Shown here piece after piece: positions 1-64,000 of a DNA stretch of 64,000 nt (within the stretch, counting starts at the first letter, position 1; each line of letters opens with the position of its first letter). Position numbers and translations under genes: made by a program. This stretch comes from Candidatus Omnitrophota bacterium (lineage in GTDB: Bacteria; Omnitrophota; Gorgyraeia; Gygaellales; Profunditerraquicolaceae), in the NCBI GenBank assembly GCA_028716965.1, contig JAQUOV010000008.1:16766-80765 (forward strand), read 5' to 3'. The notes under the pieces are model-generated. The model searched no databases, had not been told where the DNA came from, and saw only the letters and a list, made by a program, of their open reading frames with translations.

Positions 1-3000
1 GCTCATAGATATTTTCCGCCACAACCCCTCTTTCAGTAAAATAGGCGTTATACCAGGCCCCGTTATTCTTGGGCAGGCGTAATAACGCCCTGGTTAAATG
101 TTCGGCTGTTTCAATATCTCCCACAGACAGGGCCGCCTGGATAGCCTGAGCCTGGTTGTAAATCCAGGTCACTTTGAATGATGGGTCGCGTTCAGGGAGA
201 TTAGAAAAAGATTGTATAAGCCCGTTAGGACTAATTTGCGTTTTTAACCACAGATAAGCTTTATTTAGATTATCTTTACTCAGATGGGGGCGGGAACCAG
301 CTTTGGAAGGAAATAGCGTCTCTTGCAGCAATTTGCCCGGAGAAAAATATACCAAGACAAGAAACTGTAAGAATTCTCTTCGGTTTATTGGGCTGGAGGT
401 AAACAGCCTTGGAGCCGTCGACCCTTGCTTAACCAAGGTTATTTGCATCTCCGGCGGCGAGGCAGCGGGCGGATCTAAAATAAAACTGATTTCATAATAG
501 GCCTTCGGCTGAGCCAAAGAGCCGGTTATATCTTGAGGCGCATTGCCGCCCCATTGGAGTCTGATGGGCATCGAGAATTGCCTGCATAATTTGAAATAAA
601 GCCCGCAGCATGATTGGGGCGCGGCTGTATGGAGAATTATCTTTTTTGTGCCGGTAGGAGCGCTATGCGCGAAATCAAATAACTCCCTGAATAACTCAAC
701 CTCCAGGGCGGCCTTTTGTTCAGAGGAAGCCATAATCGCCATATCAAAAATGTAAAGGTTCCTGTCGAAAATCCGACCAAATATCAAATATCCCGCAACC
801 TCTTCCCCGTTAAGCCGTCCGGATCCGACAATGGTATGGTTGTTTTTATCCGCCAAAACCCTTCCGTCCCCCTGAAAAGCAGTGTAATAAAATATATTCG
901 CGCTATTTTGATTAATGCCCCTTATGATCCCGAACGCTCCCCCATCACCATCTCCAGGCCTTAATATCACAACATTGAAACCGTCCCCATCTTTTTGCAT
1001 TAATTTATCCCTGCTCAAAGGCGACGCGCCAGCTCTAAAGCTTAGCTCAAAATGATCAAACAACTCACCCATTCTTTCAGGTATATTTGACCATTTTACA
1101 AATGCTAACCTGATACCGGATCTCTCTTCCAGTTCGGCCTTATTTATCCTAATGCCATAAATATGCTGCCAAAAATCCTCTATAGACCCGCCCTTGAAGC
1201 CTCTCGGCAAGCTGATTTTTCTGTCAAATCGCAAGTATGCATTTATTATCCTTCTTTCAAATCTCAGGAAATCCCTCCTGCCTCCCTCAAAGAAATACTT
1301 TTTGACATCCGCCACGTCATATACAATCAGGCCGGCAAGCGGAACTGCGATATAAGCAAATCCCCTGCAAGCGGCTTCATCTATATCCTTTGAGCTTGGC
1401 AAGAGTATACCCGGATGCGTATGAAGCATAACCTCACCCTTCATATCATATCTGCCTACCGTATGAATAATCCTGCCTTTCTTATGTGTCTTTTCCCCCA
1501 CACCGCAAATCCAGGGGCTCCCGCTCTTATATACTAAAATTATTTCTCTCAGAGCGCCGCCAAATAAAATAAGGCTGCTTTTTGTGATGCGCTCATCCAA
1601 AAGAATGAATTCCCTTCCCTCGTGCAATTTTGCCGTGTTTTCTTCTCTTAAATACGGCGCTAATGAGCAAAGTAATATACTACGCATATTCTCATAAGTT
1701 TCATCTCCCCCTGCTAAAGACAAACTGCTGCTAGCCGATATTTTCCCGTAGATTTTAGGAGCGAATATCCGCACTCCTCTAAGATCCACCCCCCCATATG
1801 TATTACCTTTAATTATTACAGAGGATTCAGGCTCAACTTTAAATCCCTGGGCCCGCATTCTGGCCGCCATTCTTAACAAATCAGCGCTTATGGAATCCTC
1901 CCAAAGCGTTCCTCCTACTCCTATGTAAACAATCCCGCATCTCTCCAATAACAACCTTACTAATTCCTGGCCATAACCCCTCCCTCGCTCTCCCAGCACA
2001 GAAATATACGGCAACCCTACTCCCTCTTTATAATTCTTGATAATGCTTGCCCGCGCAGCCTCTTCCAGGGGCCCCATTAATGAAACCTGGCCGTCCGGGA
2101 ACACTTTTAACTTAAGCTCCCCTGTATTCTTATACTCCTTTGCCCCTTTTTCTATTTGCCTCCTGATGCTATTGGCTTGCTGAACAATAAATTGCCTCCA
2201 AAATTTTTCAGCAATGCTTGTTTTTCTCTGCGCAAGCGGGGAAGCACAGGGTCCGCGTTTATCTATCTGCCCGATTAATTTTGACAACTCCCTTCCGACA
2301 GCCCCTCCTTTTGGACGGCTGAAATCATAAGGTTTGCCCGCTGATAGTAATACAATATTCCAAATCATTTCATCTCGTAAGCCCTGCACCCCTCCGGTTA
2401 GTTTATAAATAAAATGATGCACTATATCAACAGCGGCCCACAACGAAAGACCCCACTGGACACTGCTGTTTAATCGCAGAGCTTCAGGCAGTTTAACTTC
2501 AGCAATATTTAAACCCATAAGCAACAATAAAGCAGCACCTAAGAATATATTAAAAATGCGCAGATGAATGAATGCCCTGATAAAGTTTTCTTTGGCCTGC
2601 GGGGATAAATCCCGGTAACGGAATATTCTAATGAGCCAGAATGAGGATGCGGTTACCCCATAACTGATAATGGCCGCAACCGCGGGAATAAGAGCTGATT
2701 GCCTGATAAAAGAATATGGCAGAAGGACCAACCCAAACAATGCCCAGGCACAGGGGCTTATAAGGGCAAATACAGCTCTATAAGATAATATATTCGGCAT
2801 AATTGCTTTACCTGCGGTCTTAAGGCCGCTTTTGTCTAAATTTATGGCGGATGAGGAGTTCTGATTTAAGCCTCTGATATTAAACTTCTTTCTTGTTGCC
2901 TCTGCCGCTTCCGGATCCAACTGTTTCGCTTTCTTGAAATCATCTTGCGCCTTGTTCTTATCTTTTGATAAATAATGGGCAACCGCCCTTAAACCGTATA

Positions 3001-12000: not shown

Positions 12001-15000
12001 GCCTGCGGCTATTAAAATATTTAAACCAGTTTTCAGAGCTGTCCGGTGAAACGTTCCTGGAAGAAAGATAACTTAATGCCAGGCATGATTCTCTAATCAA
12101 GTCGAAACGGCTATATCCGCTCCAGAATTCATCTCCGCGGTCAACGATGTAGTCTAATTCCCGGATATTCGTATATTTCTCAACCCATTCCTGAAGCTGT
12201 TCGATCCTGGTGTCGGGTGAATTCCATAGAATGGAAAAATCATCCCTTGCCCTCCGGGGAAGCGCATCTACCGCTCCGGACAACGCGCTTAGCAGCAAAT
12301 ACCGGACTTCAAAATACTCATCCCCGGATTTCAGGTACTGAGTATATGATTTTATATTTTCATCAAAGCGGGCGCACCTTAAGGAGTGGAAATAGCAGAT
12401 CGCTGCTTCTTTAAAAAGCCCTTCCGCCCGGAAATTATCCCCTTCCCGGATAAGAAACCCCTGGAGATCCGTTAAGGTGATCGGCTTTACCTCATCCCCA
12501 AGAATTTTCAAATTAATATAATCTATCTCTTTCCTGATATTGCCTCTTATTTCATTTTCCAACCCTCTTTTCCCGAATTCCCGGTGAATTTCCGGATTCT
12601 CATGATCATTACGCCTTAAAATTATATCCATGAAAGCGCTGAAAATATCCGCGTTGCCGGTCAGCGCAGAAGCGCTAAAATTAATACTCTTCCTGCCTCC
12701 AGCAAGCATCTGCGCTTTTCTTTGCGCAAGCTTATTCTCCAAATAACCGCTTATTTCATCCGGCATGCCCCCTAAAGCAATATGCAAAGCTTTAATAATT
12801 TCATTGGCGGAGAAAACCGGGATACTGTACATAAAATTTATCCTGCCTTCCCAGTAACAGGTCCAATCCCAATAACCGAAAAGGCCATCCACTAACTCAT
12901 TTATATTTCCCAACCGCAAACTGCGCAAAGTATTAATTTTTAATAACTGCGGTTCAAATTCAATCAGCCTGCCGGGTTTAATTTCTTTTTTATGCTCCAT
13001 GATATAAAGACAAATTTGCTGATTTAATCTTAAGTCCCCGTCAAAGACGCGCATTTCGCCAAAAATCAACCCGGTTTCCTGCCATAGCCTGATAAGCCTC
13101 TTAATCACCGAAACCATGATAAACTCAAAGAGCCGTGTGTCTTCAGTAATACCAAACCCCTCATCATTCCAGCTTAACATGAGCCGCACCCCAGGAGCGT
13201 ATTCGCTTAAGAAAATCGGCCAAAATCCCTCTATATGTTCCCGTAAATACAAAGGATAGGTGCGCTCCTTGAGGTCATAGTGCGCCTTTGCCTGAGCATA
13301 TCCGAATACGCGCGGCCAGGTGTGCGGATCCGCTCCAAAAGCAAGCTGTAAATTATTGTATTCATCAGAAGCTATCGCCATTTTCCCATTTTCCAGATAA
13401 TGGTTATCAATAATCAAAGAGAATAATTTGTCTTGCGATAAACTTGAGCCAATTACTCTTATTTCGATTTCCGATGTCGAGCCTTCTTTTAATGGCTCAG
13501 CCCCTACTCCCGTTCCTAACGGCCTGGCAAAAATAAGCGTTTTAGACGAATTGGGCAGATACGGCAAAAGCAGGCCTTGGGCCAACAACCCGTTTTCCAT
13601 TAATTTCAAATACATGTGCCCGGATTCATTCTGAAGATGGCTGAATTCATTAAAAGGAAGGCCAAGCGGGTAAACTGCCGGATAATTGTCAGAGGCCAAT
13701 CTCCTCATAAATACATTATAATATTGCAAGGAGATATTTGATTCTGCCGCTTCTAAATGGATTTCTCTTACAAGCTCGTCATGTTTATATGGCTGATTGC
13801 ACTCATCGTATTTACCTGTGATAATCCGGTGCATTTGCGCAATTGAGGATAAATAGCCGTTCTTTAATTCTTGGGCGCTCATTTGCGGCTGCCTGTTTCC
13901 GGCAATAGTTCCCCAATCGCGGCTGGTCAATAAATACCAGGGAAATTCCCTTTCAGGAGAAACTATTCCTTCCCTTAAGCTGCCGGCAGTATTCCTGATG
14001 CTCAAGATAAATCTGATTGCCTCAACCAATAATTGAACTTCATCATCACCGATAAACTTCCTGCCTGTATCGCCAAACCTTCTTGAGGCCTCCTGCAATA
14101 TCCCGCACATATCATTTTCCTGGATATCAAATTTTACTTTAACCGCCCACATAAAAGAACGGATAACCCTGGCGGAGAGCTTTATGTCTATAGCGTATTT
14201 TCCGGAGAAATTATTAATTTGATCTTCTAATCTTGAAATGTGAGCCAGCGTCAATGCCGTAACCCCAAAATACCTCTTCCCGTTTTTATGGGATTCATAT
14301 ATATTATGACGCACCTGGACTTTAATCTTGTCTAAGACTTCTTTGTCTCCGAATAGCATTTCGTAATCAAGCAGAAAGATATAGGCATCTTCGCAATCAA
14401 GCTCTTTAGGAGTAGAATAACCTATGCTGTTTATAATTGCTGCCTCAACCTCAAAACCTGCTCTCGTTAATATATTCGTTATACGCCCATGTAAAATACG
14501 GCAGTATCCTTTCAACTCGCTTTTACCCGGAATAACCAACAATTCAATATCAGAATTAAGAGTATAGAGATTGCGCGCTAAGCTGCCGCACACGACTACC
14601 GCGAATTCATGCTGACGCGGTTTAGTTCCCTGTTTCTTGGTACCCATTCTAAGTTCGCATTCTGCAAAGTACGCTGCTTCCCTAACCATAGTTTTTACTT
14701 CCTGGCTTAAGAAGCGGCATATTTGCTCTTCGGGAATACCGCGCTGGCTCGCCCTGCGATATGCCAATACCAATCCTTCTCTTCTTGTTCTAAAGGAATC
14801 AATAATTTTACTGGTTTCTTCCGCGGCATCAAAAACAGGGGATCCGGATCTCGCTCCCCCCTGGCAGTAGTCCTCTAATTGCTGATAATATTTATTGAGA
14901 TTAGTTTCAGGGAGTCTGCTCGGATAAAAATATTCCCCCCTTATTCCCAGCATATCTTTAACCCAGGCCGAAGGGCTCCTCACAAAGATCATCCTTTCGC

Positions 15001-45000: not shown

Positions 45001-48000
45001 AACTGTCGCTTACGGAATCCTGCCCTCTCTCTGCCTCAATCGGATGATAACTGTAATGCCATTCCGGGGCAAAGGTATAGCTGCCTTTCGTGGCATGCAT
45101 CCCGATGCCGTTAAAACCGGGGTACCACTGCCCCCACTGCTCATTTACAGCTGCTACCTTAAACCCTGAACCATCATGCAATATGCTATGTTTGCCATTC
45201 CACCAGTTAACAGCGCCGTCCCAGCTCTTTGTTACTTCGTGATGCAGACGCATATCCAGCTCAGGCCTGACAAAAATCCTGACACGATCAATCCCTTCGG
45301 TTGCCGCAAAGACTTCGTAGGCAAAGACCAGCCGATTTGTGCCTTGCTCAAGCGCAGCGGTTTTAACAATTATCGCTTCTTCTTCCCCTGCTTTAACCGC
45401 AAATACCCACTTTGGCAGCGGGTAACGCTGAAAATGATGAAGTTGTTCAAAATCCAGCCGGAAAGAAAACTCTCCTGTTTCGGTCAATAAAACCACATCC
45501 TCCACTGTTCCCCTGAACACGATTCTGCGCGCCTCATCAGGCGCGTCAGGAAGAAGATTAACCTGAAATCCGTCATATTTACTCGCGTAACCTGCTGTTT
45601 CAATCGCTCCGCCATGCTGATAACGCGATAATGGCCGCACAGGCAGACGGAGAATGCTGCCTTTGCCGTTTGCGATGGTTACGGTGCTGTGCGGATAATC
45701 CTCAAACTTATCTTTATTGATTACCAAAGATAAATCCTCGGTATTCCCGCGCATGCCGATTCTTCCTGCCTCAGGCAGAAGGCGCAAGTGATATTCCTGG
45801 CGTCCATAATCACCTTCCCATCCGCAGTTATGGAATTTCTGCGGCCAGAAAAAGCTCACTGCGTAGCGGCCTTTTTCTAAGGGCGGGATGAGCACATAAT
45901 ATTCGCGCGTATTCCCTTTAATTACCGCAGGTATGATCTGTTCATTAGCGGTATTTTTATCTTTCAAATACAGCATGAAGGGGTACTTATTCTTAAAAAG
46001 AAGCTTGAAGCCGCCATGGAACATTGTTTCCTTAAATTTAGCGGCCTCCCAATCCCATTCTAAATATGTGCCTCTTTGGGAGTCCAAAACCATTCCCGGA
46101 ATAACGATCTGCTTTTTAGTAACGCACTCAACCGACTCAAGGCGGTATACCGCTATCTGGCCCGGGCCAAGCGTTACATTAAAAAATGGAGCCTCCATAT
46201 TCAACTCCTCATCGGTCCTCAGCTCCAGGAAGCGTACCCGTGAAGCTGCCTTCACTTTTAATGCCATCAGCGGGAGGAGGAAGGAAACCGTTTTTTCCCG
46301 GTTGCTGAAATTAGCCGCGACTATCAATCTATTGTCCGCGTGTACCTTAAGGAATGTAACGATATGTTCTTCGTCATTATTCGGGATAATACTCAAATCT
46401 GAATAAGCGATTGCCGGATTATCTCTCCTTACCTGCGCCAACCACTTAAGCCATTCCGATAAGTCAAGCGGCCCGGCTGCCTTTGTCCCCCACGGCCGGC
46501 CGATAAGCTCTCCATCACTGCCCCTTAACTCTTCTTTTATGGAACCTTGTGCCCCTGTTTCGCCTAAACTTAACAACCCGGTAGCAATCCTTGGGCCAAG
46601 GGACAAAACTCCCATAAATGCCGGACCGACTATGCGCAAATTATCCGGACTCTGCATTCCGGTAAGATGCTCGAACATTCTGGCGTATTCTGTGGCCCAG
46701 CGAAAGCTATCATGGGTATCAACAACGGTGAAAGAATGGCCCCGCGATATAACGGCCATATCTCTAATGAAATCGCGCAATATCTTCGCTTTCAAATCAA
46801 GGATAATCGAGTACTGCAGGAATCCTAACTTATGCAAATGTTCGTACGCATGGCCGTCCCCTCCTAACTGCTCGACTATCGGCAAAAGCTGGCGCTTCAT
46901 AAAATATGCGGCTATTTTCTCCCAAAGCGCGGTATCACAATGGACCCTGCAAGAGTTTTCTTTATAAGATCCCCGGCCATACATATGGAATGCGTCCAGC
47001 CGCCAGCCGGAAATCTTCACAGCCGGATCATTTTCTTCAAATACCCTGGAGAACACTTCCTCCCAATACTTAAATTGCTGGAGGCGGGGGTCAACCTGGC
47101 CTTCTTTCACCATTTGGGCGATGGCATTTTCATTCCAGGCGGCGCTGCATCCTAAAATCTGCTCGTAGCCTAAAGTGAATCCCGGGCAAAGGAACTCACG
47201 GCCATGCTTCATAAAATACTGTTTATTATACCTGGTATCTACGCTTTCAATCGCCCGGTAATAAGGCATATCCCCTAAAACATACGTTCCCAGTGAATGC
47301 GCCGATCTTAATAAGGCATGGAATTGTTCAAGGGCCACAAACTGTTCGTAAAGAATGAACTCCCTGATCCGGGTCTTTTTAATGGAATGTCTTTCAAATT
47401 CTTTTACGTCGTAATGCCAATCATCGACTCCATAGCCTTCATATTTGAATATCCTCCAGTAAACGAATTTTGCGTAATTCTGGATCTCTTTTGATTCTAA
47501 AAAGCGGTTAAACGCTTCTTTCCGTTTTGGATCACCCAATGACATAAAATACTTGAACTTGGCTATTTGGGTATCCCCTTCATCCAAAACAGCCGGCCAG
47601 TTTATTAAGCGCGGGTGTATCGTTTGCACTGATATCGGGGTAAAGGGACTGGGGAGCGAAGTGGGAAAAAATGGAGAAAATATGAAAACGTTAGTTCCTG
47701 CCTGTTCACGCATTACCCGCATATAATCGGCTATGCCGCTAAAATCTTCCTGATAACCGGCTGCCTTCACGTCCTTAAGATAAAGATACATCGGAATGGA
47801 ATCATCCGGGCTAAACCAGCCCGGAAGAAGATCAACCTGAATGGTTACATTTTTACCGCATACCCCAATAGGCTCTTGCCCCGGGAGTTTCGCGTAGGCA
47901 GTCAATTCATACGGCCCTACTTTTAAGGCTTCCACCCATACTGTCGCGACAAAAGTCTTATCCCCATTTTCATAGCGGTTCTCAACAACAGATCCTTTAC

Positions 48001-51000
48001 CGATCAAGATGTTTCTCCAGGCGCCTGAATTTATGTTTGTATAAATGCCTACAGTTAGATCTCCCTTATTAATTTTACCCTTTGTTTCCACGGTTATGCG
48101 CACCGGGAAACGTTTGTTTATCCCGATGGGAATGTGGCTTCCGGGGGCAGGCTCCAGTATAACCGACTCGATCCTATCTACAGCGATCACGGCTGAAGAT
48201 GAGCCAGCCTCCTTTACAGTCATGTATTTTGCGTTAACGCTGCGCTTAAGAAAGCCGGCAAACTTTAATTCCAGGAATAATAAATATTTGCTGCCGATGA
48301 CCCCAGTTTTATCCGTGGTTTTTATCCTGGTAGAAAGATTAAAATATTCCACGGCATTCCCGGGATCAAGCACAAACGGCGGAACTCCTTCATGCAATAA
48401 AAGAAACCCGATATATATTGCCCCGGAGCGATGATTGCCTTCTTTAAAGAGCTGCGGATAACTGAGTATGTTGGCGTAAATGCTCGCCGCCCTCATATAA
48501 GGAGAAAATAACCGCAGCTTTTGCCTGAATTTATCAATGTAATGCTTATTCTTGATGAACTTCTCTCTTGTTTCTCTTATAAACTGGTCAAAATAGAGGA
48601 AGTCCGCGCAATCTTCTCCGTATAAACAAATAACGTCCAGATCAATAATATTTATCCCGAGGCCGCGTGATATATTACTATTTACATATCCGTAGGCATA
48701 GACTAAATTTTCAATGATTTTATCCGATATCTCCTCTCTTCTCATGATCAGGCGATCGTTTATCACCGGGAAATCCAACTGGACTTCTTTTAGCGACTTG
48801 CGTATTTCTTCTAAATTAAAGGAGGAAGTGCTTTCCTTCGCTCCAAAAATAAAATTCTTCCGTAAGCCGGATAAATCCGGCCCCGCCTGCAAAGTCGAGG
48901 ATGAAATAAACAGTGAATCCGGATCCAATAATTCAATATCGGGGAATGCCTCCCGGAAAATCCTTTTTGCCGTTGAATTAATTAGATTAAGATCATAAGA
49001 ATTCGCGGACATAACATTTTCAAATAAAATGGCGGCGCCTATCTTTCCATGGTCTCCAAGCAATTCATCAACTTCATCAATACTTCCCATGCCGGATAAT
49101 TCGTAAGTAATATACCTGCTTGAGAAATACCTGGGATTATCCGGTTCAAAACCATCCTGCAAACCGGAGAAAATATAAGTTAAGGTGAGGTCGGGATATT
49201 TTACTTGGGATAACTCTGCTAAATAAGAAGGGACTTCCTCCCTGATTTCGCTTTGTTCCATTTTATTCTTGCTCTCCCAATACATGGCTGGAATGTGGAA
49301 ATTATGCTTGAGGGCGGTATCCGGGTACCCTTTATATTCCCTTGCCTTGTGCATTAATTCATGGACTTTTACCCCATATATTAAGGAAGCTAATATCTCC
49401 TGCACACCCACCGCGGCAAAAGAATCTCTTATCCAATCACGCATTGATGGGGGAGGAAGCCTTAAGTATGCATATGGATCTATCCCCAATAAGTACCTGA
49501 ACAAATTCATCATCTTATCTAAACCATCCAGGCAAACGCATACTATCGGGAACCCTTTTAAGGATAAACCAACATCATTTGCCCTTGAATCAACTTCTTG
49601 TAACCCTCTTAGATAAAGCATCTGCGTTTCCCTGCCGTCTAACGAATAGAGTTCTTTCTGCTGAATTTCAAAGATTTTAATATCGTATGCCAGGGACCCA
49701 TCCTTGCAAGATCTGACTATATTGAAATCAGCAAATATATTACACGGCACAAGATAGCCGATGTTAAATTCATCAACTTTGCTCTGAATCTTTAAAGCTC
49801 TTTCCAGGCTAATCAGGTTATACCGGCCATCAACTAAAAACTGAACTATTTCTCCCAATTCCGAAGAGATTTCCGCGGCCTTGACAAGAAGTTCATTTTC
49901 CAGGGAGATTCTATCTTTGCTCATGCCCCTGAGGTTAATATACTGGCGGAATTCTACATCCATGAAATTAATTAAGATGGCGTGAGTTTTATCGGATTTA
50001 TTCGTGGATTTGCTTAAAGATGAACCGGAGGATATTTTACTCGTTTTTTCAAGAAATCCCGGAGGCGAGCGGGGAGAGGAATTTGCGCAATCTTGCTGTT
50101 TCTGCAGGACAACCGCTTCCCAGCCGTAATATTTATAGGGAGCATTTGGCTGAAGTGACTTAATTATTTCAATTATCCTTCGCCGGCTATTCAGATATTC
50201 GTTAGTTTTAAGAACCCAATTATCATCCAATATCGCTTTAGGGTCATAATATTTATCGTCCGCATTATACGGATTTAATACCATAAAACCACCCGGCCTT
50301 AACCAATTTTCTACATAATCAAGATGGCCGTTGTATACATTGGAAATCTTTTGCGATGCTTTCTGATAATAGATATCTAACTTGCCGTTTAATTCAAGAT
50401 CTAATTCTTGAGCTTCATTAATAAAATTATGGTTGATGAATATTATTTCACGTTCCTTATAATCTCCCGGGAGCACAAACCTTAATATTGTTCTCCCCCC
50501 ATCTTCAGGTATCTTAATATTTTTCTTTTCTACTCCCATCGCCTTTAACTCTTGAATAATATAGTATTCAATATTGAATTCAAGGCTGGAATAATAACCA
50601 AAACTATGTTCAAATTTACCTTCAAAATATGCAGAACGATGGTCCACCGGCTTCCATTCATCACGGTGTTTCCTTAAATTATTACTGCTTATTTCTAACT
50701 GATCAATAAAATATGCCTTCCCAAAACCGGTAGATAACCACAGAGTAGAAACGTCCGCACCGGAACAGCCATATCCAACAACTACGTCTTTTGATCCAGG
50801 GTTAACTACGGCTCGGATTGCCTTATAATAATTCACAAAATTCCTACCTAGTAAGCGGTTATTAATTAAGTTGCTTTCCACAATACCGAGCGAGGATCCG
50901 GATTTTTTAACTAAGCTGCATACTTCCGCGCAAAGCCCTTTCTCAAATTCCTCTAAAAGCATGCGCTCATTGGGAGTATAACCCGAATAATCATATTCCA

Positions 51001-54000
51001 TGCCCAGAATATTCATATAGATAATGGCGAATTTCAAGGCTGCCAGACGGCAGTCAAAAGCAGGAAGCATCCTTCCGGCGTTATGCATTATGCTGATGAT
51101 CCCATCCGGGGTCTCGGTCATGTATTTAATAACTCTTTCTGCCCATATTTTGTTAGGATACTGCTGGACCTCCTTAGGCGTGCGGCATTCTGAAGCAAAC
51201 TTATACGCGTAATAACGCGCCGATAAGTCCTCCAGGGCCTCCTGCAAACCTTCGGGAGTATAAGGTTCAAACAAATAGCCGTTTCCCTTCTCCCCGTGAT
51301 GAATGACGTTTAAAACCTGCTGTACCGGTCCGCCGGTATAGCTGGAAATAAGTATGGCATAAGTAAGCATATATTTCTTATCCGCCATCCCCGCTGCCTC
51401 CAGCGGAGGTATGGTGGTCTGCACCCCGGCGGTAACACCCTTGAGGACATATTCGGATACTTCGGTATTCCAGATAATATAAACAAACCTTCCGGCAAGC
51501 TCCGGGTCCTGCGCCAACTGCTTAAATTGCAATGCCCACTCCTGGCAAAGGCTGTCTTTTTCATGCGCCTTGCCGGCAAAAGCCATATCAAATGCCAACC
51601 CCCCCTCCTCCAGCGTACCGGTAACATAATATATGCCTTTCAGGCTTCCTCTTCCGGGAATAGAAAGAATAAATGTGTTATTTTTAAAATCGGCGATACG
51701 CCTGGCTTCCAACAATACCGGGTAACCCTTTCTTAATTTTACTCCCGTCAATTTTTCCAACTCGGCCTTCATGAAAGCTTCTGCCTTGCGCTTTAATCCC
51801 CAGATGATTTCTTTTTCCAGCACTGCTCCCGACTTTTGCAGCTGCTCATTCAACATCCAGTATAATGTCCATATGGAATCTTCGATGGCAAAGAATTTCT
51901 CTTTATGCGCGGGATATTCCTTTTGCATTACCCCTAAATGCTCTTTTCCTACGGTGCCTACGGCCTTAGCCTTGATGATTAAGGCTAAGAAAGGATCGTA
52001 CATCATTGAAGGAGTTCCATTGCAGTCACGCTCTTCAATGATAAATTCACCGCACTCATCCCTGTTTAAACCAAGTATTGCTTCCAGCAAATATGGGTAA
52101 TACCTGGGGAATGATTGAGGAACTGCGGTATGGGCAAATCCGATAAGGTGATTTCTCGCATTATCAAAATACGGGTCATCGCGATACTCCGGATTCTTAA
52201 ATAAATCCGGGAGCAGGGCTATTGCCGGGTACGCTTCATGCACCTGGGGCATATCTATAGACACGTTAAATTCCCTGGAGAATGCCAAAACTGCCCTGGT
52301 AAAATAGGCGGCCTGTTTAAACCGGTCCGGGTCGCGCGGCTCCGAAGGATACAAGCGGTCTGCTACTTCTTCGGTAATTTCAATTAACGGGACAAAGGCC
52401 GCTTTAGTACCGGCGCCGTCGATCTTTAAAGTAGATTTCATCAAATAGACCGTGGTGGTGATATCTTTGCCTGATAGATTAAAGGTAATTTGCCTTTCCT
52501 CAATCTTCTCCCATTTTTCAAATTCGTCTTCATAGCCGTTAATTAGAACGGAGTAGTCAAGCGGATCATTTAAATCCATGTGCGGGACCATTTGCCTGAA
52601 CTCTTTGCCTTCAACAACCTTCGCTTCCAAAGATTTGTCTATGGCCATATACTGGCCTACCCCTCTTTTATAGATGAGAAGCGGGAAATAAACATTGGCC
52701 CCGGAATAACGCAGGCCGCGTAAAAATCCCTGGATCAATACACCCAGGCCTCCGCCTAAGGCTCCCAGCAGTTTCTTCATAAGCAGGCCTGATTCAATGC
52801 TTAAAGCAAATACATTGGTTTGTTCAAGCTGGCTGAACGGTTTATAAGCCGACTTTTCCAACGATAGCTTATCCGGAAGGATCTTCTCTACCTCGTGGTA
52901 TTCCCTGCTGTCTATTACTACCCTGTGTTTACCGGCCGAATCGCAGATCACTAAATTCACTTTTATAAACCCCGGCATATTTGCCGCGCCGGCATCCCAG
53001 ATGTATCTGGTCTCCCTGTCTTTTCTATAAGCTTGTTCAGCAAGCGGAACGTCGCAATACCGGCATTCTTTTGCGGTTAAAGAATTTTCAATTCGCGATG
53101 CCCCATTACCGTTTCCGATTTCCAGCTCTACCGGCGGACGGAAATCTTCAAAATGGCGCGTATCCAGGACAATTTCGAACGGATCATACTTTGTGTAAGC
53201 GACCTTCCCCTCGCTTTCTCCCGGGTTGAATCTTCTGTCCCTTAAAGCGTGGGCAAGGACCTTATGGTTAACGATGTTGTAAGGAAGCAGCTTAAGGATG
53301 AATATTTCATTCAGGGAATTTACCGCATAGTCATATTGGCGGCTTCCTTTGGGATATGCCTGAAGCACTGTCACTATCTGGTCTATTACCCAGTTCCTTT
53401 TTTCATCCGAATCAAGCCTCAAAAACAGGTTATAAATAGTGTGGGCTACGCGCGGGTATTGATGCTCTACCAGTAATTTATAAACCGGGACTTCAGTATT
53501 GCCCAGGAACTCCGGCTGGGTGATAACCCAGGAGGCTCCCATCCGCGTTTCATCGTTGTCGCTAAACAATAACTGCTTTAAAGAATTATTGAATTGGTTT
53601 CTCGCGGATTGCGAATCCTCAAAAGCCTTATACAGTGAATATAATGCCGTCGCCCATTTGTAACCTGCCGGAGGTCTAATCGCAGAAGTGATCCGGCAGA
53701 TATTTTCTTCGTTTAAAGCCGGCAGCTGCTCTTGAGGAGCCTTGTAATCCATCCTTAAGCGATATGAATTATCGGTCAACATCCCTGTTAAGTGATAAAC
53801 AATAAATCCATTACCTCTCTCCGAAAGTGTTTGCTGCCTCTGTATTTCCGTTAAAATTGTTCGCGACTTTTTATAACTTAGCGAGTTGACCGGCTCCTTT
53901 TTCAGCGCGCTTCCCAATTGAGCAAGTACCCAAAGCTTCTTATCAGTGGACTTCAACTCAGCGTAGATATCGGAAATGATCTTGGCCGCTTTCCTGACCG

Positions 54001-60000: not shown

Positions 60001-63000
60001 ATAAAGGCATAGAGATATTGAAGGTTGTCCCTTTGCCTAATTCGCTTTCAACTCCGATCTTTCCGCAAATAAGCCTTAGGGTAGCCATTACTGAAGCAAG
60101 CCCGCCGCCAAAACTTCCCTTTTTTCCCTGTGCCGTGCTATATCCGCGGACAAATATCCTGCGAACATTCTCAGCCGAGATCCCTTTTCCATAATCCCTG
60201 ACTTGAATGGTCAACTGTCCCCGGCGATAGAATGCTTTAATAGCTATTCTTTCTGTCCGGCTATGTTCGGCTGCATTTAGCAGCAATTCTTCCAGCGATA
60301 AATTGATAACATCTTTATAGGCAAGGACATTTCTGCCCCTTAAAGAACGGGGGATTATTATGCTTATTTTAATATCCGGATAACGGGAGAGAAAAGATTC
60401 AACCTTTTTACCAATAATATCTTCAATTTTATTTTCCCAGAGAGAATACCCTGACCAGAGGATAATCTGATCTATAAGAGGGAGCATCTCTTCGGCATCC
60501 TCGGAGAAAGCCACAAAGGTATTGCGCAATAATTCCGGCAAAGCGGCAAAGGCTTCTTTATTCTGCATCAATTGCTTAATATTGACCATGGCTTCTGAAA
60601 AAAGCGGCCTTACTTTCTTCAAGATCTCGCCGACCTCTGTTTTAGATAATTTTTCCTTTTTTTTGCGAAGTTGAGTGTCGCGGACCTGCATTTCGTGCAA
60701 AGGCATGCAGGCATTAACATATGACTGGATTACCAGGACAATTTCCCGGCATTCAGGAACATCCTTCTTCAGATATCTCGTTTCCACCAAGGGAGCTAGG
60801 CCCATGCCAACGAGTTTATTTTTCAAATCATGCCAGAAGTCGCTATAAGTTTTTGCCTCCTCCTCTAATACTGAATGGAGGCTATCTCTTGTAAATCTTT
60901 CTATTACTCTACTTATCAGGGAGTTAAATCTACCGGCGAGGACACTGGCGGAAGGGCTGGTTAGAACCTTGCCTGGAGGCCCTCTGAAGGTATTAGGATC
61001 AAGGATGGACAGTGAAATATTATTTTTCAAAGGACTGCCGGCTACTATATGCAGGTTATTCTGGCGTGCCACTGCGAGGCGCCCCCTTCTGTCATAAATT
61101 ATTGCCGTTTCATAAGTAAGAGGCTGAGACAAGGATGCTGTTTCTGGCTTTTTCCCGGTTGCGGGATGAGGCCTTGATTCGGTTGAGCTATCCGGCTCAA
61201 CCCCTCTTGACCGCATGATAGTATCATACGCGTCATTTACGAGCTTCATTTGTTCATCATCGCCTGTAAACCTGTCCGGATGGTACCTCCGGGAAAGGCT
61301 TCTTTTTACTTTCTTTACCTCATCCAGGGGAGCGCCACAGGCAAGCCCTAATCTAGCGTAGGCATTCCGCTGCACTTCATTACCGGCTGCTTCTATTTTA
61401 GTTAATAAAAGTTTTAACACGTACATTCCGAAGATGGCGGCAAAAGTCCATGGGATCAAATTCAGCGCGCTGCCGGCGGGAGTATCAGATTTTAATTTAA
61501 AAGAGGCTCCTGCATACCTGGTTTTACGCCATTCGCTATAACCTCCATCAGGCAACAGATCGCGCCATAAAGATAGATGTTCACCTGAGTGAAGATATTC
61601 TTTATGAAGCGTAATCCTATCGGGCTGCAACATTATATACTCTCCATAAGACGGATATGGATAAGCCACAGACCATTCCCTGCGAAGCTTCAGGGTCCTT
61701 CCGCTGCGCCAGGCAATACGGCAAAAGACATCTACATTTCCTTCATCGATCTTAATCCCGGATATTTTTTCAATTAGGTCTTTATCTGCCAATTCCATCA
61801 ATTCCTTATTATCCCGATTAAGCACTATATGCACAAATTCAACCCTGCTCTCTCCAAATAATTTCCTGGCTAAATTATAGGCAGAGCTCATATGCCTTAT
61901 ATATCCCTGCCTCCTCGCTTCCTCATTTTTACCCAAACTCCTGTACCAGCGGCTTTCTTTATTTATATTAAATTTAACCTCAATCCCGAATTTATTATTT
62001 CTCTCTAGCTCACCGATCTTCTTTATCGCTCTTTCCCCTTGAGAACCGATTTCCCAGCCGGAAGTAAATATTATAAATTTAGAGAAATGATCCCCCTCAT
62101 TCAAAACCAGTTGCTCTATGATATCCCCGTAATTCTTTTTATAGAGCGGGTCATAATAATCTTTTAACGGGTCATTGTCAAAGAAACTAAACGGGGTAAC
62201 TGACACGATTTCCGGGTTGGCTTTGTGCCATCCGATCAATTCAATAATGTGCGGCCAGGGCATATATTTGATATCTATACCGGAGGGCTTGGCGCAAAAA
62301 GAACAATGGGTTGAGCAATTTTCAGTGGCAAGAATCTGCAGCATACGGTCATTCCTCATGGCTTCCACCAATACCCTTCTTTCTGAAAGCTTAGCCGTAA
62401 AGTATGACCCAAACCATTCAAGCGGAGGCTCTTTTAGCGCCTGTTCAAGCTCTTGCAATTCATTTAGATAAAGATCCGGGTTATCCAGATAACCCTTAAT
62501 TCTTGCGGCAACCTCCGGCAGGAGTTTCGCGCCGTAGTTATTATTAATCCAGTCGAATCTTTCCCGCGCCGTCTCCGGCACAAGGCTGGATGAGGCGGGC
62601 TGGTTAAATTTAGCTATTTCGGTATCGATATACGACACCTCAGCTTCTATATCAATAACCCGTTCGCCGATATCAATGCCTCTAATTATGTTGAGCGCGA
62701 AAAGTTTATCTTTTTGCCCTCCCAGGAACTCTTTTCTTGAAACAAGCCTCTGATGTAATTTCCAGCCTATTTCTCCAATTTGCCTGTCAAGTTCCTTGCA
62801 TTTATCATAAAGCCCAGTCTCGCCATTTTTGACGCGAATATCGCGCTTATAAAACATCTTTTTTCTTTTTGCTTCCAAAGAATCCAGCATTTCTATATAT
62901 TCCTGATAAGTTTTTACCCCAAGAAATCTGCGCAAGGCGCCAATAACAGCGACCAGCGCTCCGGATAACTTCGTCAATGCGGCAGTTAGTGAACTGTTTA

Positions 63001-64000
63001 AGCCGAAGAGAAAAATAATAGAAGAACTTGTTGAATGAGTTTCTATGGAATCAGACGCAGGAGTGCGCAATGCATATTGTATTCTCCTCCACTGCCTTTT
63101 ATCAGTCAGATCTTCCTTTAAGAACCCGGCACTGATTATGTTAGGGAGCTTATGCAGCAATTTGAAATAAAATTCAGTAGCGGGATTATTATTATTTACA
63201 TACAAAGTTATCGTAGGAATATTTCTCGGAAGTGCGTAATTAAGCAGCTCTCCGAATAGCTCTGTCCCTACCCCATATCCTTGATACTCGCGATTGACTG
63301 CCATATAATGAACATAGAGAGGGTATTCATTACGGCTGCCCAGTATCAGATAAGCGATAATTTCTTTTCTTAAGCGCCCAAATATAGCCCTATTGCCATA
63401 TTTCAACGCTTCTCTTAGGATGAGGCCGTCAACTGCCGCGCAAGGAGCATAATCGCTGTGCGGCAGGCTGTGGTTAACGCGCGATACGCCCTCAACAAGA
63501 GACTTATTTATCTTTCTTGCTTTAACTATAAATAATTCCAACTCGCTCTTAAGCGGACTGTTAGAGTAAATATTAAACCCACGGCGCTTTAGCTCTAATT
63601 TTATTGCCTCCTCGGGGATATAATACCTGTCATAAATATGGATGGGGCAGCCTATCCAATCCATTAATTGCGGCTGCATTCTTTCAAAGAAGGTCAATGT
63701 TTTATTATTCTTATAGTAGCCCCCGTGTCCCGGCTTAAAATCAAACACATCGTAAATACTTAAGTAAGGGCCTTCGCTATCTTTCCCGAAAGACAACCTG
63801 TAATTACCTAAATCTATTCCCGTGTAGAAAATCCTGGATACCGGATTAGTTTTAAAGTTATCATGCAGCCGGACAAATTGAGAATCAACAATCTCTCCTG
63901 TTTTCATGGATAACAATTTTTGCAATAATTGCGTTGGCCAATAATAGGATATTTCTTTACTCTTATATACAAATTCAAAAGCTTCGCTTAATTCAGCTAC
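1..64000 (-). CDS. Internal fragment of a giant multidomain protein. No start or stop lies in the window; at least 21,300 codons are visible, continuing beyond both window edges.
   Basis: About 20 sites from nt 1 to nt 64000 were reverse-complement translated by hand. They give stop-free, protein-like sequence in one minus-strand phase (+ triplets starting at positions ≡2 mod 3), including 540 consecutive codons over nt 1-1620. The ORF track contains no minus-strand ORF in this phase, and all listed minus ORFs are in the other two phases; this fits a frame with no stop in the window. Peptide at the high-coordinate end: SKEISYYWPTQLLQKLLSMK. Peptide at the low-coordinate end: ...DIETAEHLTRALLRLPKNNGAWYNAYFTERGVVAENIYE, continuing past nt 1. 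Confidence 0.8.
1300..1620 (-). other. JAB/MPN (JAMM)-like metalloprotease-like segment within the giant ORF
   Basis: Hand translation gives ...GRIIHTVGRYDMKGEVMLHTHPGILLPSSKDIDEAACRGF.... The HTHP...SS.D pattern resembles the JAMM HxHx7Sx2D zinc site, but the spacing is imperfect. Confidence 0.3.
1800..2260 (-). other. GNAT N-acetyltransferase domain (copy 1)
   Basis: The peptide VLGERGRGYGQEL is encoded at nt 1961-1999. It matches GNAT motif A (R/Q-x-x-G-x-G/A), the acetyl-CoA pyrophosphate-binding loop. Confidence 0.5.
2460..2830 (-). other. Hydrophobic segment, putative transmembrane helices
   Basis: Reverse-complement reading is dominated by L, I, A, F, V and W. Only nt 2798-2830 were translated carefully (...SGLKTAGKAIMPN...); the hydrophobic reading at lower coordinates is from a less careful read. 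Confidence 0.3.
2900..3700 (-). other. TPR-like repeat array (array 1)
   Basis: The peptide IAGLYSQGDKYLEKAEILAR is encoded at nt 3482-3541. The + strand shows a repeated A/Y/G/L-rich helical-repeat pattern typical of tetratricopeptide repeats across this span. Confidence 0.45.
7240..7760 (-). other. Basic low-complexity linker with an AT-hook-like GRP motif and a repeated K-x-K-L-F motif
   Basis: nt 7682-7759 encode DRLKKENKLFSAKRGAGRPRKPQNLS, with a GRPRK AT-hook-like core. nt 7241-7300 encode PSFPPARKTKLFRQREADEE. The KLF(R/S) motif recurs about 155 aa apart. Confidence 0.3.
8200..8800 (-). other. Rossmann-fold methyltransferase-like module (FkbM/class-I-like glycine-rich motif)
   Basis: nt 8582-8662 encode ASVSIYDVGAAGGLFGAVAAPRLDKWA. 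The hydrophobic-D-V-G-A-x-G-G pattern resembles SAM-binding motif I. Confidence 0.35.
18850..19500 (-). other. Class I SAM-dependent methyltransferase domain
   Basis: nt 19022-19081 encode ELDMETARIADLGCGRGDVV. This is the canonical motif I (hh-D-h-G-C-G-x-G) of class I SAM methyltransferases. Confidence 0.5.
24000..24500 (-). other. Second methyltransferase-like Rossmann motif (PrmA-like)
   Basis: nt 24243-24299 encode ILGRNEFKGKTVAVAGLGN, followed in a looser read by GVDAIFSS. Only the single motif was checked. Confidence 0.25.
26600..27150 (-). other. GNAT N-acetyltransferase domain (copy 2)
   Basis: nt 26861-26941 encode CWIHYAVAVGEKFRQKGLGPAIASELL. RQKGLGPA matches GNAT motif A. Confidence 0.5.
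30950..31300 (-). other. GHKL/HATPase_c ATP-binding domain (copy 1); no HisKA dimerisation motif recognised upstream
   Basis: Three peptides match the boxes of histidine-kinase-like ATPases. N box: HERISGIKEIFCHLIHNAIDAISEAQMNGELVEGQGRLKI (nt 31141-31260). G1 box: RVLEDSGDIVLEVEDNGCGL (nt 31082-31141). G2 box: HVLGGKGEGLFKVRGWIDK (nt 30961-31018). Confidence 0.5.
31900..32345 (-). other. HD-domain metal-dependent phosphohydrolase
   Basis: nt 32282-32341 encode FPPGSAHILAHGRAVARIVD, which is the H...H...VA start of an HD domain. A looser read downstream gives ...AALVHDLGK..., the HD dyad. I cannot tell whether this is an HD-GYP subtype. Confidence 0.45.
33200..34450 (-). other. Radical SAM domain (copy 1) with an adjacent cobalamin(B12)-binding-like segment, i.e. 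a class B radical-SAM-like module
   Basis: nt 33782-33862 encode EYNLVTSRGCVNSCNFCNFYMVGGKSH. The CxxxCxxC 4Fe-4S motif lies at nt 33812-33835. nt 34142-34201 encode NIIGISAYDRSVLELIELIK, which resembles the hh-G-I-S pattern of B12-binding domains fused to radical SAM enzymes. Confidence 0.55.
39600..40700 (-). other. TPR-like repeat array (array 2)
   Basis: nt 40082-40140 encode GICCLKLGNYAQGRRYLER. The surrounding reverse-complement reading shows repeated ...Y..A...Y...AL... helical-repeat periodicity. Confidence 0.35.
46600..47500 (-). other. Possible glycoside-hydrolase-like (TIM-barrel glycosidase) module
   Basis: nt 46981-47040 encode FEENDPAVKISGWRLDAFHM. nt 46921-46980 encode GRGSYKENSCRVHCDTALW. 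G-W-R-L-D-A loosely resembles the nucleophile region of clan GH-H glycosidases, but the His spacing does not match GH13, so the family is unassigned. Confidence 0.2.
49200..49600 (-). other. Zincin-like metallopeptidase motif (HExxH)
   Basis: nt 49322-49381 encode IYGVKVHELMHKAREYKGYP. HELMH lies at nt 49349-49363 and is similar to the HELxH of SprT/WLM-type and other zincins. Confidence 0.4.
57000..57800 (-). other. P-loop NTPase (Walker A) module, STAND/AAA-like
   Basis: nt 57602-57802 encode YIKALAIGSTTVEQAIYELLGKDLNMMKQKDFALDLITGLGGCGKTTLLELFRDLCKELGLKEAAHE. The Walker A motif GLGGCGKTT lies at nt 57662-57691. Confidence 0.5.
60000..60420 (-). other. GHKL/HATPase_c ATP-binding domain (copy 2)
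   Basis: nt 60181-60240 encode IKAFYRRGQLTIQVRDYGKG, a G1 box (D-x-G-x-G). A looser read on either side gives ...LNAAEHS... (N box) and ...GSFGGGLASV...GKIGVESELGKGTTF (G2 box). Confidence 0.45.
61240..61480 (-). other. Internal J-domain (DnaJ-like, HPD motif) preceded by a hydrophobic helix
   Basis: nt 61261-61320 encode VKKVKRSLSRRYHPDRFTG, with the HPD tripeptide flanked by basic residues as in J-domain helix II/III. nt 61437-61511 encode ...FKLKSDTPAGSALNLIPWTFAAIFGMYVLK, which is hydrophobic. Confidence 0.45.
61900..62700 (-). other. Radical SAM domain (copy 2)
   Basis: nt 62283-62339 encode QILATENCSTHCSFCAKPS. The CxxxCxxC motif lies at nt 62294-62317. Confidence 0.45.
63000..63500 (-). 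other. GNAT N-acetyltransferase domain (copy 3)
   Basis: nt 63242-63298 encode VNREYQGYGVGTELFGELL. It is GNAT motif A (Q-x-x-G-x-G). Confidence 0.45.

Follow-up and report, generated by a model that had tools for sequence, protein, structure and literature searches.

Giant open reading frames (ORFs) are well documented in the Omnitrophota. Seymour et al. (2023) found ORFs longer than 20 kb in 77 of 116 Velamenicoccia genomes, with few annotated domains and poor conservation, and cite peptide evidence for an ORF of 39,678 amino acids (aa) in Velamenicoccus archaeovorus. West-Roberts et al. (2023, bioRxiv 10.1101/2023.11.21.568195), who set the gene-length threshold for their 46 sequences at more than 90,000 bp, described 'Archaeovorins' that reach 85,804 aa and contain glycosyl hydrolases, methyltransferases and TPR, among others. 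In the corpus of Nielsen & Lui (2026, bioRxiv 10.64898/2026.06.07.730766) the longest protein reaches 147,155 aa, 3,650 proteins attain 10,000 aa or more and 348 attain 30,000 aa or more; these authors recognized a class of 'multi-enzyme metabolic clusters' whose commonest Pfam families include methyltransferase, HATPase_c, GNAT, HD and radical SAM; 80% of such proteins are singletons. Here, we have analysed a 64,000-nt stretch of contig JAQUOV010000008.1 (assembly GCA_028716965.1, positions 16,766 to 80,765 of the forward strand), referred to below as the window, whose minus strand is occupied from edge to edge by a single reading frame of 21,333 codons.

With a probability of about 0.82, we read the window as an internal segment of one genuine gene of more than 21,333 codons, of the Omnitrophota type and belonging to the giant 'Archaeovorin / multi-enzyme metabolic cluster' class. 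So placed, the gene is a further, highly divergent example of a class already well documented in Omnitrophota, and its minimum of 21,333 aa, although large, has ceased to be exceptional, being below 39,678 aa and far below 85,804 and 147,155 aa. The first-pass annotation of this DNA had called the gene comparable to the giant genes of Omnitrophota, which its domain content bears out, and had ranked it among the largest bacterial genes known, a statement that larger records have made dated.

The uninterrupted frame

Read from nt 64000 of the minus strand (plus-strand triplets starting at 63998, ≡2 mod 3), the frame contains 0 TAA, TAG or TGA in 21,333 codons, where about 1,353 stops are expected from the base composition of that strand and the probability of finding none is ~1e-588. 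The other five frames hold 1265, 1004 and 775 stops on the plus strand and 1480 and 1830 on the minus strand, and their longest open stretch measures 561 nt. The longest conventional ORF encodes 158 aa (38757..39233, plus strand), and the open frame is missing from the ORF list because the ORF lister drops ORFs running off both ends. A minus-strand frame free of stops through the whole window, in this very phase, together with an ORF track that listed nothing above 158 aa and nothing in the open frame, had been proposed in the first-pass annotation and was reproduced by six-frame translation; its estimate of a gene longer than 64 kb and 21,300 aa likewise agrees with a single frame of at least 21,333 codons that crosses both edges.

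The coding signal is as continuous as the frame. A codon-position signature, with G-rich first positions and GC-poor second positions, holds one phase across all 64,000 nt, and usage is uniform across 8-kb blocks for codons (r 0.90-0.97) as well as for tetranucleotides (r 0.90-0.95). Self-BLASTP of the 21,333-aa translation gave merely two weak pairs, i.e., no internal repeats, and no tRNA genes, Rfam matches or tandem repeats (TRF, 0 arrays) were found in the 64-kb window. On the strength of zero stops, a single coding phase, homogeneous usage and the lack of repeats, we annotate 1..64000 of the minus strand as the internal part of one giant coding sequence, open at both edges.

Two readings that would dissolve this gene can be weighed against the same measurements. 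An assembly artefact, in the form of a chimeric join or of collapsed or expanded repeats in the metagenome assembly, has to be considered inasmuch as genes of this size challenge assemblers and a multiplicity above 1 is reported for some giant-bearing contigs (Nielsen & Lui 2026). Collapsed repeats are unlikely because self-BLASTP and TRF show none, at the protein or the DNA level; as to a chimeric join, uniform usage and an unbroken coding phase speak against it, and a random join would keep the frame only one time in three, with each piece still stop-free for tens of kilobases. We consider an artefact very improbable.

Even less probable, in our estimate, is that several ordinary genes are seemingly fused by a deviant code, by stop read-through or by stops lost to sequencing error, a reading that could draw on the gene-sized modules of the frame and on one module that is a separate gene in relatives. 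All three stop codons are absent from the frame, and in-frame ATGs with a Shine-Dalgarno-like motif upstream amount to 2.8% as against 3.1-3.3% in two non-coding frames; as this rate is not above that of non-coding frames, there is no sign of internal gene starts, and ribosome-binding sites (RBS) with an ATG are not enriched at module starts either. Matches to promoter-like patterns (49/37/31, with 42/43/39 expected from shuffles) and to terminator-like ones (30/26/28, with 22 expected; z < 2, most of them on the non-coding strand) stay at or close to chance, and no 150-nt window in the 64 kb falls under 28% GC, so that no terminators or AT-rich intergenic-like gaps set the modules apart. The three scans thus uphold the earlier observation that no RBS with a start, terminator or AT-rich gap partitions the frame. 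The linkers between modules are, moreover, short in-frame peptides that carry a conserved amino-acid motif in varied codons, as described below. A change of genetic code as such was ruled out, there being no stop codon of any kind in the frame.

The GC skew of the plus strand is negative in every 2-kb bin (-0.07 to -0.23), the coding minus strand being G-rich throughout, which is consistent with one long gene that is probably co-oriented with replication.

Domain content beside the described giant proteins

The 21,333-aa product is a non-repetitive mosaic of about 15 distinct Pfam families, of which the most frequent, HATPase_c, is present in three copies at separate loci; Pfam and NCBIfam matches cover about 10% of the chain, leaving about 90% without a family match. 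This composition resembles in part that of the Archaeovorins, whose type is the 39,678-aa protein of V. archaeovorus LiM: a single ORF of tens of kilobases, a non-repetitive and mostly unannotated mosaic, glycoside hydrolases, methyltransferases (CheR and UPF0146 in the window), TPR, high divergence and a few interspersed hydrophobic segments. With at least 64,000 stop-free nt, the frame lies well above the 20 kb at which Seymour et al. (2023) counted giant ORFs in Omnitrophota.

The resemblance extends to the Class 1 'multi-enzyme metabolic clusters' of class Gorgyraeia (Nielsen & Lui 2026), in which many distinct Pfam families tile the chain and none dominates, as is found here with about 15 families, no internal repeats and at least 21,333 aa. 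The window shares with them the 'module 1' set (methyltransferase, HATPase_c, GNAT and HD) as well as the sugar-metabolism and radical-SAM content of 'module 2', whereas starch synthase, GT1, phosphoglucomutase and receiver domains, all frequent in Class 1, were not found in the window.

Other kinds of very long protein fit less well. Repetitive giant adhesins of the RTX, Ig-like, TSP3 or dockerin type consist of tandem arrays of one domain, of which the window has none, and dockerin, TSP3, Ig and cadherin domains have no Pfam match across the 21,333 aa. Viral and eukaryotic polyproteins and the megasynthases for polyketides (PKS) and nonribosomal peptides (NRPS) share with the window, in principle only, the joining of many catalytic units by short linkers in one translation product. 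The window shows no assembly-line or carrier-protein logic; PKS and NRPS domains (KS/AT/ACP or C/A/PCP) gave no Pfam match across the 21,333 aa.

The matched domains, all encoded on the minus strand, are listed here in the order of the chain, from Pfam unless otherwise indicated. The N-terminal portion of the window protein has a first GNAT acetyltransferase (aa 204-280; 63161..63391), a J-domain of the DnaJ type that scores just under its cut-off (aa 880-929; 61214..61363; E=4.3e-6, 27.2 bits against 27.8), the first HATPase_c (aa 1236-1333; 60002..60295; Pfam/NCBIfam, the three copies ranging from E 6.6e-15 to 5.7e-9) and a PRK-like kinase segment (aa 2103-2191; Pfam/NCBIfam). Alpha-glucan enzymes follow: a segment resembling alpha-glucan phosphorylase (aa 4099-4219; 51344..51706; a partial match to TIGR02094, E=1.2e-6), a GH77 domain, i.e., 4-alpha-glucanotransferase (aa 5485-5598; 47207-47548; E=5.5e-10), and the N and C domains of glycogen debranching enzyme (GDE), GDE_N (44957-45451; E=4e-18) and GDE_C (43664-44779; E=8e-80), which together span aa 6184-6779 (TIGR01561, 3.9e-62). 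Beyond the second HATPase_c (aa 6988-7102; 42695-43039; Pfam/NCBIfam) and TPR repeats (aa 7898-7997; 40010..40309) lies a B12-binding/radical-SAM module (aa 9775-10510; 32471..34678), 31% identical over 735 aa to a protein designated P0001 (E=1.5e-65), with its radical-SAM core at aa 10051-10207 (33380-33850; Radical_SAM, E=2.3e-6). It is followed by an HD phosphohydrolase domain (aa 10563-10658; 32027..32314; E=2e-4), the third HATPase_c (aa 10919-11021; 30938-31246; Pfam/NCBIfam), a UPF0146 methyltransferase-like domain (aa 12040-12144; 27569-27883; 3.6e-17), the second GNAT (aa 12296-12380; 26861-27115) and a CheR-type S-adenosylmethionine-dependent methyltransferase (aa 12826-12998; 25007..25525; 1.7e-15). 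The C-terminal portion contributes a putative nucleotidyltransferase of family DUF294 (aa 16416-16517; 14450..14755; E=1.3e-4) and a further TPR (aa 20333-20364; 2909-3004).

Transmembrane (TM)-like segments were sought by Kyte-Doolittle hydropathy with a 19-residue window and a threshold of 1.6, a crude predictor. The window protein has nine, amounting to about 0.8% of residues and clustered near both window ends. Three lie together at aa 20409, 20436 and 20474 (2525..2776, minus strand); the others, on the same strand, are at aa 338 (62933-62989), 848 (61403-61459), 13639 (23030-23086), 19634 (5045-5101), 20014 (3905-3961) and 20881 (1304-1360).

The GH77-GDE block and the placement of the gene

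A gene-sized block that comprises GH77 and GDE (aa 5226-6792; 43625..48325, minus strand), delimited by Pfam, TIGR01561, full-length homologues and an AlphaFold (AF2) model, is the sole part of the window with close relatives and makes up about 7% of it. A search against a set of 5.8 billion proteins returned six matches, all free-standing proteins of 1,140-2,073 aa that are 40-48% identical to the block, and the five full-length ones (1,673-2,073 aa) cover 94-99% of it. In two loci the homologue is an ordinary ORF with its own stop, of 1,772 or 2,057 codons (L001, 6746-12061; L002, 5972-12142). These free-standing Omnitrophota proteins (P0151-P0155, L001 and L002) share with the window the order GH77, GDE_N, GDE_C and 43-55% identity over about 1,600 aa; unlike the embedded copy in the window, which runs on in-frame, each of them is a gene of its own with a stop codon, 1,673-2,073 codons long. 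Several have signal-peptide-like N-termini, whereas the embedded block is without a start, a stop or a signal peptide.

A unit that is a gene elsewhere thus sits in-frame in the giant, which is direct evidence of growth, or conversely of fission, by whole-gene units. At least in the GH77-GDE block, the giant gene looks like an in-frame fusion of gene-sized units, a pattern that we infer for the remainder. The block thereby offers a direct example of how such genes may grow, via in-frame fusion of gene-sized units.

The block also carries the taxonomic signal. The two best genome matches of its GDE part are metagenome-assembled genomes (MAGs) of Candidatus Omnitrophota, at 54-55% identity, as compared with at most 41% in all other phyla, and NCBI names two of the six matched proteins Candidatus Omnitrophota or Omnitrophica. 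We have nevertheless considered that the giant gene belongs to another phylum, since Verrucomicrobiota, Firmicutes, Actinobacteria and Chlorobi, too, are reported to have proteins longer than 30,000 aa. The taxonomic signal comes from one block, long proteins occur in other PVC phyla, and the next-best GDE relatives are found in Desulfobacterales, Kiritimatiellia, Lentisphaerae and Verrucomicrobiota, all of which such an origin would accommodate. It would not readily account for the identity gap, for the NCBI-named Omnitrophota entries among the six whole-block matches, for a linker motif held in common with P0034, a protein from a MAG of the Omnitrophota family Profunditerraquicolaceae, or for a multi-enzyme, non-repetitive architecture of the Omnitrophota type, and we judge it to be quite unlikely.

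Relatives outside the block are few and distant. An exhaustive HMMER search with the 1,200 residues of aa 9601-10800 found 2 of 1.84 billion representative proteins at E<=1e-30. The better of the two is P0001, a 6,905-aa protein with B12-binding and Radical_SAM domains and 31% identity. P0001 is the product of a complete gene (L161:10001-30718, plus strand) on the complete 1.52-Mb chromosome CP070797.1, where it divergently adjoins the gene for a 7,587-aa HEAT/TPR/polysaccharide-deacetylase protein (L161:1-9750, minus strand). A word-indexed protein search with aa 10001-11000 returned nothing at E<=1e-5 because the best relative is merely 31% identical, and a metagenome scan with an alignment of the radical-SAM module gave generic 22-31% matches, with no ORF of at least 2,500 aa at the retrieved loci. 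Searches for the DNA itself came up empty: an exact 60-mer of the window had 0 hits among GTDB representative genomes, and a 68-nt pattern taken from the GDE core, with wobble positions left free, had 0 hits among JGI metagenome contigs.

Several observations weigh against placing the gene in the Archaeovorin / multi-enzyme class of Omnitrophota. Its assignment by sequence to that phylum rests on the one block, 7% of the window, and on the motif-sharing relatives, the window containing no marker genes. No close sequence relative of the whole window protein was found, in which it differs from the Archaeovorins. Numerous TM helices, at about 2% of residues, are reported for the Archaeovorins and the long proteins of Gorgyraeia; here the crude hydropathy scan finds TM-like segments more sparsely than the reported frequency of about one per 370-1,000 aa, and aa 867-13638 (23087-61402, about 12,800 aa) have no strong hydrophobic segment. 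This same stretch combines the GH77-GDE block, whose free-standing relatives have signal peptides, with the typically cytoplasmic radical SAM, J-domain and HATPase_c, and its topology is puzzling. Finally, SecA_DEAD, C39/S8 peptidase, HEAT, glycosyltransferase and NUDIX gave no Pfam match at E<=1e-3 in the 21,333 aa, which are an internal fragment; the SecA_DEAD and C39/S8 peptidase domains of Archaeovorins are reported near the termini, regions that lie outside the window, so that their lack here is compatible with membership of the full gene.

A tetrapeptide at the linkers

In a tripeptide ranking of the window protein, SSS and SSL come out on top (SSL 34 versus 9.8 expected, z = 7.7), and the tetrapeptide [A/G/S/C/N]-S-[S/P]-[L/I/V] to which they belong occurs 43 times where 8.9 are expected (z = 11.3). 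A site that starts at aa a occupies window nt 64000-3(a+3)+1 to 64000-3(a-1) of the minus strand, as for 43610-43621 (SSSL, aa 6794), 32387-32398 (SSSPL), 34919-34930 and 27950-27961. The 43 sites start at aa 147, 325, 335, 470, 988, 1604, 2030, 3022, 4368, 4659, 6794, 7757, 8579, 9452, 9499, 9691, 10535, 11073, 11086, 11622, 12014, 12730, 13076, 13147, 13406, 13746, 13991, 14087, 14308, 14411, 14780, 15155, 16017, 16386, 16851, 18653, 19173, 19962, 20511, 20586, 20757, 20992 and 21202.

The same motif recurs in related long proteins: 19 copies against 3.0 expected in P0001, 14 against 1.8 in P0034 (nearly all SSP[ILV]), 15 against 1.7 in P0014 (ASPL ×9, SSPL ×3, ASPV ×1), 7 against 0.9 in a 2,130-aa neighbour of P0014, and 5 against 0.9 in P0036. 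The enriched loci, i.e., the window, L161:10001-30718, L162:76-10209 and 10551-16943, and L163:132-12851, exceed expectation 5-9 fold, and an unbiased tripeptide ranking puts sub-words of the motif at or close to the top for each of the four largest of these proteins and not for control long proteins. Ordinary proteins stay at background (34 versus 30.4 in 136 radical-SAM matches; 216 versus 202.9 in 1,214 ORFs of non-Omnitrophota loci). The 7,587-aa HEAT/TPR neighbour of P0001 is likewise not enriched (3 versus 1.5 expected); the motif therefore marks the multi-enzyme type, not every huge protein. It is not described in the two giant-protein preprints that were searched, of which the catalogue of Nielsen & Lui (2026) covers domains, topology and repeats and names no motif for linkers or cleavage; papers that combine 'Omnitrophota' and 'polyprotein' did not turn up in a full-text search.

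The motif keeps to the spaces between modules. None of the 43 sites falls inside a Pfam envelope, where 4.3 would be expected, and in the window, P0034 and P0014 the residues flanking a site exceed random positions in polarity and fall short of them in hydrophobicity (|z| 3-5), which is not the case in P0001. In all five proteins that share the HD module a copy of the motif, SSSPL in the window, stands 20-45 residues ahead of the HD core, amid sequence that is not conserved. At the N edge of the GH77-GDE block, AGSSSAV of the giant aligns with [VA]SSPIV of P0152-P0154, and at the C edge RSSSSL aligns with their ISSPV, ASSPL and ASSPI. In the AlphaFold model of aa 6150-6900, SSSSL lies in a 13-residue low-confidence coil (predicted local distance difference test, pLDDT, below 50) right after the last helix of the GDE barrel, the SSSL at aa 6794 coming 6-10 residues past that helix. 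The longest motif-free interval in the window, aa 4659-6794, contains the very block that is one gene elsewhere. P0151, P0155 and L001 are without the motif at the linkers of the block, and because they lack it there, the motif is not part of the fold. By sequence comparison, then, short polar linkers bearing a conserved tetrapeptide connect the modules.

What the tetrapeptide does is a matter of graded likelihood. A structural hinge or delimiter is the reading that we prefer, at roughly even odds; a processing site appears rather unlikely, and a modification site, e.g., for glycosylation or phosphorylation of Ser, slightly more so. Processing is the core of the alternative by which the giant ORF would be a bacterial polyprotein, an 'operon in one frame' of whole fused genes whose chain is cut at the motif, by a protease encoded in the gene or by another, into dozens of enzymes, with the tetrapeptide as the recognition site for cleavage or modification. 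Such a polyprotein would refine the reading of one giant gene, and several observations would suit it: the motif is short and linear, lies between flanks that are not conserved, returns at intervals of 100-2,000 aa and holds its position at module edges in proteins whose modules are only about 30% identical; its enrichment is confined to long proteins of many modules, ordinary ones staying at background; and one motif-bounded block equals a free-standing gene elsewhere. Published work, too, proposes cleavage of the giant proteins.

Two weak protease signatures can be named, a Trypsin_2 match in P0014 and, in the window, a segment that resembles the JAB/JAMM metalloprotease signature, HTHPGILLPSSKD / EVMLHTHPGILLPSSKDIDEA (aa 20857-20887; 1340..1432, minus strand), in a unit that sits exactly between the motif sites at aa 20757 and 20992. 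Prok-JAB is the sole Pfam match of this candidate and is not significant (E=0.1, 12.9 bits versus a cut-off of 25), a PDB sequence search gave only chance-level TssG matches, and a single-sequence AF2 model was uninformative (pLDDT 33.5). The motif itself is dispensable at the same linker in the orthologues P0151, P0155 and L001, Pro at its third position blocks many proteases, and a role as hinge, helix cap or glycosylation site fits equally. Taking these points together, we regard the polyprotein as improbable. If it were true, the motif would chart, for the first time at the level of sequence, where the modules of Omnitrophota giant proteins end and where the chains are processed.

Returning to the main reading, that of one giant gene, we envisage the following. 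The gene would be transcribed and translated as one unit, as has been proposed for the giant-protein class of Omnitrophota, and a single round of expression would supply many activities, with their stoichiometry fixed, on one chain tethered to the membrane. The product is not a repetitive adhesin but strings together dozens of unrelated enzyme and signalling modules, each the size of a gene, and its alpha-glucan modules may act on glucans from storage or from prey, which would agree with hypotheses already published. Its linker motif would either delimit domains or act as a hinge between them, or be recognized where the chain is cut or modified. We infer both single-unit expression and the membrane-tethered presentation of activities; the former is supported by peptide data for the giant ORF of V. 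archaeovorus.

For the giant proteins at large, a preprint states that missing knowledge of cleavage or boundary points hinders their subdivision for structure prediction; cleavage has been proposed, with no cleavage points known. The motif supplies a concrete criterion by which a giant protein can be divided into units, and it tells where the proteomic data that exist for V. archaeovorus could be inspected for semi-specific peptide termini or modified Ser. Linker motif and gene-in-gene block together make the question of boundaries and processing testable with existing data.

The codons behind the motif deserve a last comment. Its sites are encoded by varied codons in the window and in L163, and because codons vary at the window sites selection acts on the motif as a peptide; a recombination scar, an RNA signal or any other element of the nucleotide sequence was accordingly rejected as a general explanation. 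In L162, the ASPL sites are mostly GCC-TCG-CCG-CTG, made of rare codons (GC content at third positions 0.80 versus 0.49 expected, z 4.8), a uniformity that hints at a nucleotide-level component there, e.g., a translational pause, gene conversion or spread in recent times. Each of the five genes tested uses, at its motif sites, codons that are slightly rarer than expected (z -1.2 to -2.3).

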